DNA of 20,000 nt, taken from the IMG/VR virus record IMGVR_UViG_3300028581_001913; one strand, written 5' to 3'. A program made the position numbers and the translations under genes. The notes under the pieces were generated by a model. The model did no database searches, was not told the origin of the DNA, and saw only the letters and a list, made by a program, of their open reading frames with translations. This DNA comes from an uncultured virus (IMG/VR IMGVR_UViG_3300028581_001913). Lineage: Duplodnaviria > Heunggongvirae > Uroviricota > Caudoviricetes. Below are positions 2,698 to 11,966 of this stretch, in pieces (the stretch's first letter is position 1; each line of letters starts with the position of its first letter).

Positions 2698-3193
2698 ATA
2701 TCATATTCCAGTATTTTGGGATGATGAATTTAAAAGACTTGACTACGTTAACGAGCCGTTCAATGATTTAGTGAGTGTAAACCATTGGATCAGTCAAGGT
2801 TATGCCAATCGGTTCACTGGCGACATGTGTGACATGCGCGGTCAACAACCCCGGTGGAATCAAACGTTCCTAGACATTTACACCCAAATGGGTTGGAAAG
2901 CTATAGGCACCAGTTATTATAGAATGACCACCGGTACCACGCTGCCAGTGCATAGTGATTTGTATGTTCGATATATTCAATTGTGCAATTTACAGGGGCA
3001 AGAACATCGCATACGTCGAGCTGTGATATTTTTGGAAGACTGGAGATCTGGCCATTACTTTGAAGGTGCTGGGCTAGCCATAACTGGTTGGCAGGCAGGT
3101 GATGCAGTTGAGTGGGCATATAATTTGCCACACATGGCAGCAAACGTGGGAATAGACCCTAGATACACATTACAAATAACAGGATGGGTATGA
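2675..3193 (+). CDS. 2OG-Fe(II) oxygenase / cupin-fold hydroxylase
   Basis: HxD (LPVHSD), distal His (PHMAAN) and Arg (PRYTLQITG), typical of the double-stranded beta-helix fold. Overlaps the end of ugd. Confidence 0.7.
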   Translation: MATQDLIKYHIPVFWDDEFKRLDYVNEPFNDLVSVNHWISQGYANRFTGDMCDMRGQQPRWNQTFLDIYTQMGWKAIGTSYYRMTTGTTLPVHSDLYVRYIQLCNLQGQEHRIRRAVIFLEDWRSGHYFEGAGLAITGWQAGDAVEWAYNLPHMAANVGIDPRYTLQITGWV

Positions 3194-4104
3194 TATCAAC
3201 ATACAATGAATGGGATCCACTCCGACGCATCGTAGTGGGTCGTGCTGACACAGCCAATTGGCCTGTGAATGATCCGGTGTTTAAAAATGAGGGAGAAAAA
3301 ACCACTTGGAAGGAAACTCCTGTGCCACGCGGTGCTGTGCCTCAATGGATCATTGACGAAGCCAACGAAGACCTTGAAATATTGACCCGTACATTGCAAG
3401 ACTTGGGTGTCAAAGTAGAACGTCCAGATCCTTGTTTGAACTTTCAAACACATGACGGACTCTCCACTTACTGCCCTAGAGACCGATTGTTAGTATACGG
3501 GTCAACCATTGTTAATCCTGTGATGATGTATCCCTGCAGGGACATGGAATCACAGTGCTACTATGACATCATTGACGAAGCCGAACACTACTTGCACATG
3601 CCCAGAAACGAAGGCATGATATTGGAAGCGGCCAATGTTTGCAGGCTCAATGACTCATGGTTGGTATTAGAAAGTTCAGGATGCAATGCATCAGCACTAG
3701 CATGGTTGCGTGTTCAGTTTCCGGATGTCAAAATAGAATCCTGTAACTTCTATGCTGGCGTGCATATTGACTCAACCATTGTGCCCATACGTGAGGGCCT
3801 GGTGCTGTTGAATGGTACCAGGGTAAATGACGCCAACTGCCCAGAAGTGTTTCGTGACTGGGACAAGATCTATGTGAATGATGTGGTAGCACAAGGATTC
3901 CACGAGTACCCTTATGCGTCAAAATGGGTGGGCATGAACATGTTGGCCGTAAATCCAACAACTGTGATTATGGATCGGAACCAACCAGACCTAATTGCTC
4001 AACTGGAACAACGTGGGTTCACTGTAATTCCATTGGAATTGCGCCACAGCCGTACCTTGGGTGGTGGGTTTCATTGTGTCACCCTGGATCTGGAACGTGG
4101 TTAG
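3190..4104 (+). CDS. Amidinotransferase (glycine/inosamine-phosphate amidinotransferase-like, pentein fold)
   Basis: N-terminal NEWDPLRRIVVG, CPRD, HIDST and C-terminal GGGFHCVTLDL with catalytic Cys. ATG at 3190 overlaps the upstream TGA (ATGA); alternative start at 3184. Confidence 0.88.
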   Translation: MISTYNEWDPLRRIVVGRADTANWPVNDPVFKNEGEKTTWKETPVPRGAVPQWIIDEANEDLEILTRTLQDLGVKVERPDPCLNFQTHDGLSTYCPRDRLLVYGSTIVNPVMMYPCRDMESQCYYDIIDEAEHYLHMPRNEGMILEAANVCRLNDSWLVLESSGCNASALAWLRVQFPDVKIESCNFYAGVHIDSTIVPIREGLVLLNGTRVNDANCPEVFRDWDKIYVNDVVAQGFHEYPYASKWVGMNMLAVNPTTVIMDRNQPDLIAQLEQRGFTVIPLELRHSRTLGGGFHCVTLDLERG

Positions 4105-5243: not shown

Positions 5244-5529
5244 TATATTTGCGGGAATTTATGAATGGATAAAAAATGATTACCGCACGAATAATTTTAG
5301 ATTTGTTGTTGAGCTGTTGGCCTGGGCTATAAGTATCGGCTGCTCAATTACCATGGCTGCTACTGTGCCAAATCCGCCCTTGCTGATTCTGTATCCTATC
5401 TGGATTGCAGGCTGTGCCATGTATGCCTGGGCTGCCTGGACTCGAAAGAGTTTTGGCATGCTGGCCAACTACTTGCTATTGGTAACAATAGATTCAGTTG
5501 GCCTGGTCCGTATGCTGTTGTTAAGTTGA
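5236..5529 (+). CDS. Small 3-TM membrane protein (possibly PnuC/SWEET-like half-transporter fold)
   Basis: Start re-assigned to ATG 5236, overlapping the end of uvsE. 97 aa with three hydrophobic segments. Confidence 0.65.
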   Translation: MLNIFAGIYEWIKNDYRTNNFRFVVELLAWAISIGCSITMAATVPNPPLLILYPIWIAGCAMYAWAAWTRKSFGMLANYLLLVTIDSVGLVRMLLLS

Positions 5530-5862
5530 TTTCTTTTTGGCAGGTGTCCGTTTAGCCACAGCTGGCTTGGCTGTTGTTTTCTTGTCCGGTGCTGGTTTTT
5601 TAATTTTGGCAACAGCCGCTGCCTTGTTTTCAGCAGTGGCATCGGCCACTGTGGGTGCAGGTGCTTCTACTCGATCATCCGCTGATGCCCCGGGTGCAAC
5701 GTCAGCAGGTTTGACGTGAATCTTGCCCGCTGGCACTGCTTTTCCGTAGGGCCAAGGACGCTCTGAGTTAGCATCATTGTCTTTTTGGTCTGGTCGACTC
5801 ATGGTGTAAATCCAATACCCTGCCAGGGCCAAAATCGCAACTGTGATAATAATAACTTCCAT
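5521..5862 (-). CDS. Single-pass membrane protein with Ala/Lys/Pro-rich (histone H1-like) tail
   Basis: ATG 5862 with AGGAG SD (5875-5871). N-terminal TM VIIITVAILALAGYWIY; C-terminal KKPAPDKKTTAKPAVAKRTPAKKK. Confidence 0.7.
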   Translation of the reverse strand: MEVIIITVAILALAGYWIYTMSRPDQKDNDANSERPWPYGKAVPAGKIHVKPADVAPGASADDRVEAPAPTVADATAENKAAAVAKIKKPAPDKKTTAKPAVAKRTPAKKKST

Positions 5863-6310: not shown

Positions 6311-6384
6311 GTCAATTCCTTTATATTGTTCAACAACATTATTTAGTATTTGGTCACTAATTTCGCCAAAAAAGTAAAATGATG

Positions 6385-6414
6385 TTGCACCGCACAAATA
6401 AATAATGTTACAAT
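6385..6414 (+). promoter_or_regulatory. Promoter with overlapping PhaR-box-like motif upstream of phasin-like gene
   Basis: TTGCAC (6385-6390), 18 bp, TGt-TACAAT (6409-6414). TGCACCGCACAA (6386-6397) has the TGC-N3-GCA core. ATAAATA at 6398-6404. Confidence 0.55.
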
Positions 6415-6481
6415 AGATCAACAAGGCGCTGAATGGTTCGGGTCTTGTGTTCTAGAACTTGCTTAATTCAAGGAGAAAAAC

Positions 6482-6739
6482 ATGTTCAATTCCGTAATCG
6501 AAGCTGTGCAAACTGCACAAAAAACTTTTGTCAACACTGTGGTCACTAACGAAGAAATCGCCCAGCCCATGATCCGCATGATCGACAGCCAGTGCGATGC
6601 TGCCAAACTCACTGCCAAAGCTGTGCTGGATATCACCACAACTTTGGCCAGTGCTACCACTGAAAAAGTGCAAGAAGCAATGAAGTTTGACTTTACCAAA
6701 TACGCTGAAGCATTCAAGCCAGCCACTGCTAAAAAGTAA
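6482..6739 (+). CDS. Phasin-like small amphipathic helical protein
   Basis: 85 aa, Ala/Thr/Lys/Gln-rich, appears all-helical. Strong SD AAGGAG, own terminator and a PhaR-like site upstream. Confidence 0.5.
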   Translation: MFNSVIEAVQTAQKTFVNTVVTNEEIAQPMIRMIDSQCDAAKLTAKAVLDITTTLASATTEKVQEAMKFDFTKYAEAFKPATAKK

Positions 6740-6758
6740 TACTCTAGTACTACTTTTT
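6731..6758. repeat. Near-perfect palindrome AAAAAGTAATACT-CT-AGTACTACTTTTT (candidate operator)
   Basis: 13-bp arms with one mismatch. GTACTACTTT recurs twice at 14471-14493 ahead of another promoter. Confidence 0.55.
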
Positions 6759-6763
6759 GAAGA

Positions 6764-6785
6764 CCCTGCTGAGTGCAGGGTTTTT
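6764..6785 (+). terminator. Rho-independent terminator
   Basis: CCCTGC-TGAGT-GCAGGG followed by TTTTT. Confidence 0.8.
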
Positions 6786-6786
6786 C

Positions 6787-6815
6787 TTGACCGGAAATTC
6801 CCAATCTGCTATAAT
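6787..6815 (+). promoter_or_regulatory. Early sigma70-type promoter (probably leaderless transcript)
   Basis: TTGACC, 17 bp, TGc-TATAAT. ATG at 6822 is 7 nt after the -10, with no SD. Confidence 0.85.
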
Positions 6816-6821
6816 TTGGGT

Positions 6822-7055
6822 ATGAAAACAAAAATCAATGAAATATTACAGTGGTCCGGAGCGGTGTTTATCATTGCTGGTCACAGTCTCAACGCCGTGG
6901 GCCCTGAGGCCTACCCCTACAACATTCTTGCCTTTTTTGTGGGCACAATATTGTTTATGATCTGGACAATACGTGTTGCAAACAAGCCACAGTTCATGGT
7001 GAATATTGTGGCACTGTGCATTGGAGCAAGTGGATTGTTCAAGGCATTTGGTTGA
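6822..7055 (+). CDS. Small 3-TM membrane protein
   Basis: 77 aa hydrophobic ORF (MKTKINEILQWSGAVFII...). Start re-assigned from the promoter position. Confidence 0.7.
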   Translation: MKTKINEILQWSGAVFIIAGHSLNAVGPEAYPYNILAFFVGTILFMIWTIRVANKPQFMVNIVALCIGASGLFKAFG

Positions 7056-9573: not shown

Positions 9574-10143
9574 ATGACCACAGAAACCGAAACTACACAA
9601 ACTCACAGTCAGGCTCTGCATGAAAATGGCATGTATGTTTTCATGGGCGAAGTCAATAACGAAAACATTTTGCCCATTGTGGAGTGGATCTTGCATGAAA
9701 ACTTTGTGGCCAAGAAAAAACGCAAAGAACTGCTGTTGATGATCTGCTCGGAAGGTGGCGACATGGGTGCTGCCTTTGCTCTGATCGATGTAATGAAGAG
9801 CAGTCTCATACCCGTCAAAACAGTGGGTCTGGGCATGATAGCCAGTGCAGGCTTGTTGATCTTTATTTCTGGCACTCCGGGCAGACGTGTGCTCACACCC
9901 AATACCAGTATCCTAAGCCACCAATTCTCATGGAGCAATGAAGGCAAGGCACACGAACTGTTTGCCACCATGCGCGAGTTTGAACTCACACAACAACGCA
10001 TGTCAGCTCACTATCAACTGTGTACTGGATTATCTGAAAAAGAGATCAAAAAGCACTTGTTGCCACCACATGACATTTGGTTATCAGCAACAGAAGCCTT
10101 GAGTCTGCATGTGTGTGACCACATTTCAGAACTGGCACGTTAA
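9574..10143 (+). CDS. clpP: Divergent ClpP-family peptidase (S14)
   Basis: SEGGD, GMIASAG (Ser), SHQ (His), HDIWLSATEAL (Asp); triad appears intact. Confidence 0.85.
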   Translation: MTTETETTQTHSQALHENGMYVFMGEVNNENILPIVEWILHENFVAKKKRKELLLMICSEGGDMGAAFALIDVMKSSLIPVKTVGLGMIASAGLLIFISGTPGRRVLTPNTSILSHQFSWSNEGKAHELFATMREFELTQQRMSAHYQLCTGLSEKEIKKHLLPPHDIWLSATEALSLHVCDHISELAR

Positions 10144-11324: not shown

Positions 11325-11352
11325 TGGTATTTTCCAGGAATTGTGTTATACT
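11324..11352 (+). promoter_or_regulatory. Sigma70-type promoter for host-like clpP
   Basis: TTGGTA (11324-11329), 17 bp, TGt-TATACT (11347-11352). Overlaps the minus-strand ATAAGTA motif. Confidence 0.5.
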
Positions 11353-11375
11353 TATGCAATCACCAAGGAGACCCT

Positions 11376-11966
11376 GTGCCAAATTTAGTACCAATAGTTT
11401 TAGAAAACACTGCCAAAGGTGAACGCAGTTATGATATCTACAGTCGCCTGCTCAAAGACCGTGTGATCATGCTGGACACAGAAGTTTCAGAGCATTCAGC
11501 CAGTTTGATTGTGGCGCAGTTGTTGTTCTTGGAAGCAGACAATCCCGACAAAGATATTAGCCTGTACATCAACAGCCCAGGCGGTGTGGTCACAGCAGGC
11601 ATGGCCATTTATGATACCATGCAGTTTATCAAACCCGATGTGCATACCATTGTGATGGGACAGGCCTGCAGCATGGGGTCGTTGTTGGCACAAGCAGGTG
11701 CCCCGGGCAAGAGATTTATGTTGCCCAATGCACGTCACATGATTCATCAGCCGTCAGGTGGCGCACGTGGACAGGCCACAGACATGTTGATTCAAGTGGA
11801 AGAGATTCTTGCAATGAAGAAAAATTTAACAGGTATATACGTGAAGCATAATTCAGCAGGCCGGACCTTTGATGAGCTCACAGCAGACATGGAACGCGAC
11901 AATTTCATGAGTGCTGAACAAGCAGTTGACTATGGGCTTGCTGATCGAATTGTGCAGAACCGTTAA
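11376..11966 (+). CDS. clpP: ATP-dependent Clp protease proteolytic subunit (bacterial-type)
   Basis: GTG 11376 after [51 protein letters not shown]. Confidence 0.95.

Follow-up and report, generated by a model that had tools for sequence, protein, structure and literature searches.

A candidate PhaR-type operator over the promoter of a small, possibly phasin-related gene in an uncultured phage

The 20,000-nucleotide (nt) stretch analysed here, referred to throughout as the window, comes from the IMG/VR virus record IMGVR_UViG_3300028581_001913, an uncultured freshwater member of the Caudoviricetes. It carries a gene for an 85-amino-acid (aa) protein whose promoter is overlaid by a palindrome that resembles the operators of PhaR, the repressor that senses granules of polyhydroxybutyrate (PHB) in Alpha- and Betaproteobacteria. 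For many bacteria of waters and soils, PHB is a major store of carbon and energy. The explanation that best accounts for the locus overall, and towards which we lean with slightly more belief than doubt, is that it forms a monocistronic phage gene for a granule-coat protein, gated by a PhaR-type operator. Such an arrangement would probably allow the phage to time its protein to the carbon store of the host. As read from the sequence, the locus runs from operator to promoter, 5′ untranslated region (UTR), 85-codon open reading frame (ORF) and terminator as one self-contained unit:

6382..6398, no strand assigned: predicted PhaR-type operator ATGTTGCACCGCACAAA, enclosing the 12-mer TGCACCGCACAA (6386-6397) and a 15-mer (6383-6397)
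6385..6390, plus strand: -35-like hexamer TTGCAC, matching TTGACA at 3 of 6 positions and overlapped by the operator
6398..6404, plus strand: ATAAATA spacer element, near-invariant across class-A promoters (defined below)
6406..6414, plus strand: extended -10 element, TGT-TACAAT, invariant across the 32 distinct class-A promoter strings
6421..6481, plus strand: 5′ UTR of ~60-61 nt with two hairpins, from RNA folding and Rfam
6470-6475, plus strand: Shine-Dalgarno (SD) sequence AAGGAG, read from the sequence
6482..6739, plus strand: gene for the 85-aa protein (ATG 6482, stop 6737-6739), an ORF whose predicted product is amphipathic and all-helical, belongs to a virus-restricted family and is perhaps distantly Phasin_2-like
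6759..6790, plus strand: intrinsic terminator from RNA folding, hairpin 6759-6785 (-16.9 kcal/mol) followed by a U run, kept in 9 of 9 aligned loci

The spacer between TTGCAC and the -10 element is 18 nt long and includes ATAAATA, and the operator ends 10 nt 5′ of the -10 element.

The palindrome agrees with three PhaR motifs derived in different bacteria. PhaR footprints on phaP1 and phaP4 of Bradyrhizobium diazoefficiens yield the consensus TGCRNYGCASMA, and the phaP4 site overlaps the -35 element (PMC6201568); the motif derived for PhaR in Ralstonia eutropha H16 is a palindrome, YTKNTGCRNYGCANMAR, whose centre is a single base (PMC12849132); and the Sinorhizobium meliloti motif has a YGC-RNY-GCR core with AT-rich arms, with point mutations that abolished the gel shift (PMC12542648). 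The window site matches TGCRNYGCASMA at 12 of 12 positions and YTKNTGCRNYGCANMAR at 16 of 17, fits the YGC-RNY-GCR core, and agrees with the inner 15-mer of the Ralstonia palindrome, TKNTGCRNYGCANMA, at 15 of 15. Lying over TTGCAC (6385-6390), it also takes the same promoter placement as the phaP4 site. A first-pass annotation of this DNA had called a PhaR-box-like operator here, with TGCACCGCACAA over the -35 of a promoter for a stand-alone 85-aa gene that has a strong SD sequence and its own terminator, and had quoted the Bradyrhizobium consensus. Each of these elements is present where it was placed, the quoted consensus is the published one (PMC6201568), and the call holds in sequence, symmetry and promoter position when the site is set beside the Bradyrhizobium, Ralstonia and Sinorhizobium operators. 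We regard the predicted identity of the operator as well supported by computation.

The promoter itself differs from the others in the window. Nine of these, each on the plus strand, conform to TTGAC[AC]-N17/18-TATAAT at 11-12 of 12 positions:

1406, 4152, 6787, 7052, 7535, 14501, 14782, 16658, 17360, plus strand: near-consensus promoters, TTGAC[AC]-N17/18-TATAAT

They look like the phage's standard promoter for the host polymerase, and beside them the -35 region of the 85-aa gene is atypical for this phage. Conservation of the -35 or of the spacer is not required at an extended -10 promoter, and on such general promoter knowledge a symmetric sequence in the -35 region would be left unexplained by sigma-70 contacts. 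A sigma-54 reading of TTGCA was rejected from the sequence, which has no GG element ~12 nt upstream. Most of the nine near-consensus promoters have TG before the -10 element, and several begin within the U run of the preceding terminator.

The number of sites in the window is not significant on its own; the weight of the assignment lies in position, conservation and cross-genome context. The 15-mer core occurs once in the window versus 0.10 expected, with at least one match in 19 of 200 shuffles. For the cross-genome context, the 17-mer ATGTTGCRNYGCAACAT, a perfect palindrome taken from relatives and distinct from the degenerate variant of the window, was scanned in one genome per bacterial or archaeal species. 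At least 120 stretches matched, and the 80 loci for which DNA was returned formed the sample; the adjacent gene was taken as the longest ORF starting within 350 nt on either side (300-350 nt over the bacterial and viral scans together), and all counts are counts in samples. Going by their record titles, about 60 of the 80 sampled bacterial loci belong to the Pseudomonadota, mostly Alpha- and Betaproteobacteria. When the 147 adjacent ORFs were scanned against Pfam, the neighbour at 14 or more of the 80 loci was a Phasin_2 gene that passed the Pfam cut-off, with its start 19-92 nt away from the palindrome. This count is a lower bound, since the choice of ORF is crude. Phasin genes number only a handful per genome, so 14 of 80 points to a very large enrichment. 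Further neighbours among the matches listed are short-chain dehydrogenases (four loci) and patatin-like lipases (two loci). In five of the genomes with Phasin_2-linked sites, the 15-mer occurs 15 times versus 0 for the reversed control, with at least one site per genome guaranteed by ascertainment, and behind one of the additional sites lies another phasin gene. The PhaR N-terminal domain is encoded in three of these five genomes; the other two are fragmented.

The same 17-mer was scanned in IMG/VR, where again at least 120 stretches matched and 80 loci with DNA were sampled, and adjacent ORFs were tested for membership of the 85-aa family by hmmsearch with a broad profile (A4) at E <= 1e-3. 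At least 18 among the 80 sampled viral loci adjoin a family member, 13 of the 18 below 1e-13, and one of the 18 lies on the contig of locus L004, a relative discussed below. Beside the other 62 loci the ORFs are mostly small and unknown, with three sites in a DNA polymerase gene and two before ClpP; none of these 62 has a Phasin_2 protein beside the box. The pairing of operator and protein family recurs across diverged phages.

Conservation was followed in 65 loci, comprising 8 from IMG/VR, 56 from metagenomes and the window. Sixty-one of them have at least 125 nt of upstream sequence, which reduces to 48 distinct upstream sequences in four classes: A (32), with a long UTR as in the window; B (6), with a short UTR; C (3), with proteins 32-40% identical; and D (7). 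A promoter lies directly upstream of the gene in 41 of the 48. In class D the 85-aa-family gene is second in a two-gene operon, and the first gene encodes a 101-aa paralog (hhalign, 96%). In the one class-D locus that was read, L005, the paralog occupies 2703-3008 and the family gene 3001-3264, and the same promoter stands upstream of the paralog. Among the 41 promoter-bearing sequences, TGCRNYGCA is intact in 23, TKNTGCRNYGCANMA is exact in 21 and present with at most one mismatch in 33, and the Bradyrhizobium 12-mer is found within one mismatch in 30. All 41 keep a purine and a pyrimidine at the inner positions, and the centre base takes all four values. In total, nine centre triplets occur between the near-invariant arms ATGTTGC and GCAACAT. 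Many relatives have a perfect 17-bp palindrome at the same place (e.g., ATGTTGCATTGCAACAT), and in variants such as ATGTTGCGCCGCAACAT both inner positions have changed together, in exact keeping with the R/Y degeneracy permitted by the PhaR motif. At one locus (L025:1-160), close to a contig end, the upstream sequence repeats promoter and UTR exactly but in inverted orientation, with the palindrome as the mirror point; this is probably an assembly fold-back rather than biology.

The protein belongs to a family of small proteins. Homologs number 135 at E <= 0.01; the best 120 of them, all metagenomic, have 67-96% identity, and their contigs are as long as 353 kb. When 1.84 billion representatives were searched with a profile, 137 clusters of proteins 49-195 aa long were obtained. 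AlphaFold2 predicts helices at residues 2-20, 24-67 and 72-77 (mean pLDDT confidence 75.5), and hydrophobic moments of 0.49 and 0.36 are reached by 0.3% and 0% of 2000 shuffles, respectively. The amphipathic helical character claimed in the first-pass annotation is thus borne out by predicted helices and by moments far above those of shuffled sequences. The window protein has no match in Pfam, NCBIfam or PHROGs. Phasin_2 (PF09361) is the only recurring Pfam family among 136 relatives (6 of 136, best 22.3 bits, E 1.6e-4, all below the 24.9-bit cut-off), and 5 of the 18 operator-linked viral members likewise match it below the cut-off, with a best score of 22.0 bits. No phage-family member scanned reaches the Phasin_2 gathering cut-off. 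With a phasin hidden Markov model, family members have a median score of 7.6 bits versus 0.9 for shuffles, and a maximum of 18.9 versus 10.2. The ESM Atlas places the family in virus-only clusters, and its nearest named neighbours, which serve as leads only, are Phasin_2, PHB_acc and PHA_synth_III_E at 0.84-0.86. Among PDB sequences, a profile search returned designed helical bundles only. Like Phasin_2 proteins, the phage protein is small, alanine-rich, all-helical and amphipathic; unlike them, it is only 85 aa long, about half the usual length, and its N-terminal 26 residues are specific to the family. These comparisons weakly suggest a protein that is distantly phasin-like without being a member of Phasin_2.

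The 5′ UTR resembles a short RNA thermometer. RNA folding predicts a hairpin I at 6421-6448 and a hairpin II in which UUGCU (6459-6463) lies opposite AGGAG of the SD sequence (6471-6475). The Rfam model ROSE_3 (RF02523), which we take to be built from Pseudomonas ibpA elements, matches at full length over 6420-6487; its 27 bits (E 0.0016 over 551 nt) fall short of the gathering score, 43. In a search of 31 kb, relatives reach 37.9, 36.8 and 34.8 bits; 24 bits were obtained for the UTR in front of the L005 paralog, where UCGCU replaces UUGCU. All of these matches cover the full model, and neither the window nor any scored relative reaches 43 bits. The UTRs of relatives are near-identical, so their scores are not independent support, and no clear compensatory changes were seen among them. 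ROSE_3 was not found in five bacterial genomes or in 14 control genomes. The short ROSE-like thermometers of Pseudomonas ibpA have U(U/C)GCU in imperfect pairing opposite the SD sequence, inside the 3′ hairpin, as well as two hairpins and a 61-62-nt form (PMC3669281). The phage UTR is alike in its length of ~60 nt, its two hairpins, its UUGCU opposite the SD sequence and its unpaired AUG; it differs in scoring below threshold and in preceding a phasin-like gene rather than a small heat-shock gene. It is plausible that the UTR acts as a short ROSE-type RNA thermometer or translational switch.

The transcript is present in RNA libraries from lakes. Twenty-three RNA runs contain small shares of the stretch (0.06-0.13), and contigs were aligned from four of them, metatranscriptomes of lakes or fresh water that stem from four studies, with one short contig per run. 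They start at 6427, 6428 and 6429, that is, 13-15 nt downstream of the -10 element, and at 6444, and end between 6589 and 6703, all within the bounds of the predicted transcript. Their similarity to the window is 90-99%, and the operator is not covered by any of them. The contigs fit a transcription start near 6421, seven bases after the -10 element; being contigs, their coincident ends are a weak hint and do not give an exact 5′ end, a strand or an expression level. The protein family is abundant in lake metagenomes and metatranscriptomes.

Any PhaR that acts at this site would come from the host, since the PhaR N-terminal domain was not found in five related phage contigs (13-65% complete) or among the window ORFs. 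Nor did the genes beside it include a candidate regulator, PhaR-like or otherwise. The locus and the 85-aa protein had no match when a collection of cultured phages was searched at the DNA and protein levels. A host call from the neighbourhood was attempted by tblastn of two neighbouring genes and set aside, as the hits were only 27-43% identical, in jumbo phages of Vibrio, Stenotrophomonas, Erwinia, Dickeya and Aeromonas. A PhaR-bearing proteobacterial host that produces polyhydroxyalkanoate (PHA) is a reasonable guess. The G+C content of the window, ~45%, would fit low-G+C freshwater Betaproteobacteria such as Polynucleobacter, if the value we assume for that genus is right.

Under the preferred reading, host RNA polymerase would read the 85-aa gene as a monocistronic unit from its extended -10 promoter, the -35 region of which would be replaced by the type of operator that PhaR binds. 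Without free granule surface, PhaR would occupy 6382-6398 and block the promoter. In the presence of PHB granules, PhaR would be drawn onto them and, if phaP genes are a guide, the gene would be switched on. The product, which is small, helical and amphipathic and probably a very distant relative of phasins, may then bind the granule surface and alter its coat, either mobilising PHB or blocking its synthesis. Pairing of UUGCU to the SD sequence within the ROSE-like UTR would probably add translational control. An extended form of this reading is a ‘carbonosome module’ of freshwater jumbo phages, in which a virus-specific granule coat protein, gated by host PhaR and by a ROSE-type temperature or stress switch, displaces host phasins so that depolymerases open the PHB to fuel replication, and operator-intact and operator-broken alleles represent alternative strategies. 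We consider the module in this full form unlikely.

Several results weigh against a PhaR-gated coat protein. Within the window the 12-mer consensus occurs once versus 0.56 expected, and 84 of 200 shuffles contain at least one match. The window copy is a degenerate palindrome, and its spacer is 18 nt versus 17 nt in relatives. Conservation of the box upstream of homologs, the lack of which the first-pass annotation had listed as a refutation, holds for the 33 of 41 sequences within one mismatch of the 15-mer, but the right half-site is destroyed in an allele, TGCACTGCCAGG, that occurs in 8 of the 32 distinct class-A promoters and in the operon form L005:

L001, L014, L017, L031, L034, L040, L041, L044, L005: carriers of the TGCACTGCCAGG allele

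This allele stands on at least two different upstream backgrounds and may represent either a constitutive form or a site that some other factor binds. Three further strings have single changes in TGC or GCA, and most of classes B and C have GCC in place of GCA. With a half-site lost in many promoters, the box appears dispensable in many lineages. Moreover, the whole promoter and UTR are highly conserved in close relatives, which makes conservation of the arms alone weak evidence. The first-pass annotation had also proposed a scan for further boxes. In the window TGCRNYGCA is at chance level (4 versus 3.73 expected); in the five related phage contigs TTGCRNYGCAA occurs nine times versus 0 in the control, but six of the nine sites are intragenic, and no wider phage regulon is seen.

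The kinship of the protein is open to similar objections. The window protein has no phasin match in Pfam or NCBIfam even at E 10. By hhalign, the broad profile A4 reaches 79.5% (E 1.5e-5, 41 columns) against a homogeneous alphaproteobacterial phasin subfamily, pairing residues 27-67 with its AK.LQEL(I/L)DLQ..F.K region, an optimistic figure because that subfamily was chosen post hoc as the best scorer of 15. Against 14 mixed phasins A4 gives 5.6%, and the narrow family profile A2 gives 1.4%. Foldseek against the PDB gave no match at E <= 0.001, a comparison in which long helices are uninformative. Of the first-pass claim that the protein is phasin-like, the amphipathic helices and a sub-threshold, subfamily-dependent similarity stand; no phasin family threshold was reached, and Foldseek returned nothing specific. 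Nor do the nearest cultured phages give a usable host call at 27-43% protein identity.

Three other explanations have to be weighed against the PhaR reading. The palindrome could be the operator of another dimeric regulator, from phage or host, with a protein whose function in transcription, the virion or the membrane is unrelated to PHB and a merely coincidental likeness to the PhaR box. Such a regulator would fit a protein that stays below every phasin family threshold, as well as the 62 of 80 sampled viral 17-mer loci that lie beside other ORFs, mostly small and unknown. A regulator encoded by the phage could be missed in related contigs that are 13-65% complete, and the nearest cultured phages are too distant for a host call. 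What makes this account unlikely in our view is that the identical 17-mer precedes Phasin_2 genes at at least 14 among 80 sampled bacterial loci, that the site fits three independently derived PhaR motifs, including their R/Y degeneracy, and that no candidate regulator was found beside the gene.

Alternatively, the locus could be a relic of an ancient capture of a host phasin with its operator, in which the box is decaying and confers no useful regulation and the protein has been kept for another reason. The TGCACTGCCAGG allele, in its 8 of 32 class-A strings and L005 and on two or more backgrounds, points in this direction, as do the degenerate window site and the prevalence of GCC for GCA in classes B and C. 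We nevertheless find a relic distinctly unlikely, because all 41 promoter-bearing sequences retain the left arm together with the R-N-Y centre, including those with proteins only 32-40% identical, and nine centre triplets occur between invariant arms. The family is virus-only in the Atlas, so a capture would have been ancient, yet the box persists. Finally, the box could be no more than part of an unusual promoter, with TTGCA as the -35 and a conserved spacer, and match PhaR motifs by chance. An expectation of 0.56 12-mers per window and the conservation of the whole promoter region among close relatives would be compatible with this; it is made very improbable by the enrichment beside bacterial phasin genes, by the 15 sites versus 0 in the reversed control, by the established dispensability of a conserved -35 or spacer at extended -10 promoters, and by an ATGTTGC/GCAACAT symmetry that sigma-70 contacts leave unexplained.

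The locus can be set beside known systems. The PhaR (AniA/PhbF)-phaP circuit shares with the phage locus a TGC-RNY-GCA box with AT-rich/ACA arms and a single-base centre, a position over or beside the -35 element, and a small amphipathic helical protein encoded downstream (PMC6201568, PMC12849132, PMC12542648). The phage locus differs in having one site instead of the two or three typical of phaP promoters, in having no phaR nearby, in sitting on a large lytic-type phage genome, and in a downstream protein that is not a recognisable Phasin_2. A large phage would be an unexpected place for this known circuit. A parallel exists in cyanophages, whose pstS and phoA genes carry host PhoB boxes and are wired to a host nutrient regulator. 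In both cases a phage promoter would carry the operator of a host sensor and an auxiliary gene would follow the nutritional state of the cell. Unlike the cyanophage boxes, the box described here would read stored carbon, at the surface of PHB granules, rather than phosphate, and would work by repression and titration rather than activation.

To our knowledge, the dealings of phages with PHB are essentially unstudied. Among the papers listed by full-text searches combining phasin with phage or viral terms, none dealt with a phasin encoded by a phage or with a PhaR box in one; one candidate, PMC10136805, was discarded, as the word it contains is ‘phasing’. If the reading is correct, the gating of a phage promoter by a host granule sensor would be a new kind of viral host-state sensing, and the PhaR box would be a sequence marker that links uncultured phages to PHB-storing hosts.

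The gene order around the locus agrees with a self-contained unit. The next promoter, TTGACC-17-TATAAT, begins within the U run of the terminator of the 85-aa gene and thereby delimits it. The unit is flanked by an HNH gene on the minus strand on one side and a gene for a small membrane protein on the plus strand on the other. The neighbouring genes, and two protease genes further along, are as follows:

5521-5862, minus strand: conserved divergent neighbour, a small membrane protein (hydrophobic helix at the N-terminus, basic tail rich in Ala, Lys and Pro), also present in L004, L005, L006 and L057
5885-6310, minus strand: HNH/NUMOD4 endonuclease gene, from a family scan, between the operator and the divergent membrane-protein gene
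6822-7055, plus strand: next gene, for a 77-aa membrane protein, with its own TTGACC promoter (DUF6552, 26.8 bits versus a cut-off of 27)
9574-10143 and 11343-11966: two ClpP-like protease genes 1.2 kb apart, one strong (264 bits) and one diverged (92 bits)

In relatives such as L004 and L006 the divergent gene starts only ~100 nt from the operator, and the HNH gene of the window therefore looks like a homing-type insertion. No family was found for the divergent small protein in library scans of the window ORFs or in an Atlas look-up. The palindrome reaches 25 bp in some relatives (ATTTATGTTGCA-T-TGCAACATAAAT), and the operator box may serve both divergent genes.

Other products encoded in the window include a UvdE-like endonuclease, a UDP-glucose dehydrogenase, a radical-SAM protein and a metallophosphoesterase, and several ORFs match PHROG families. 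The window looks like part of a large phage. The ATAAATA element bears a loose resemblance to T4 late promoter elements; it is not enriched in the window (4 observed versus 2.12 expected). The remaining extra box matches in related contigs are intragenic, apart from a second box, TTGCACTGCAACAGATAAAT, at L185:1501-1511 on the contig of L007. A 271-aa ORF follows this box at a distance of 54 nt, and the layout is like that of operator and ATAAAT at the 85-aa gene.

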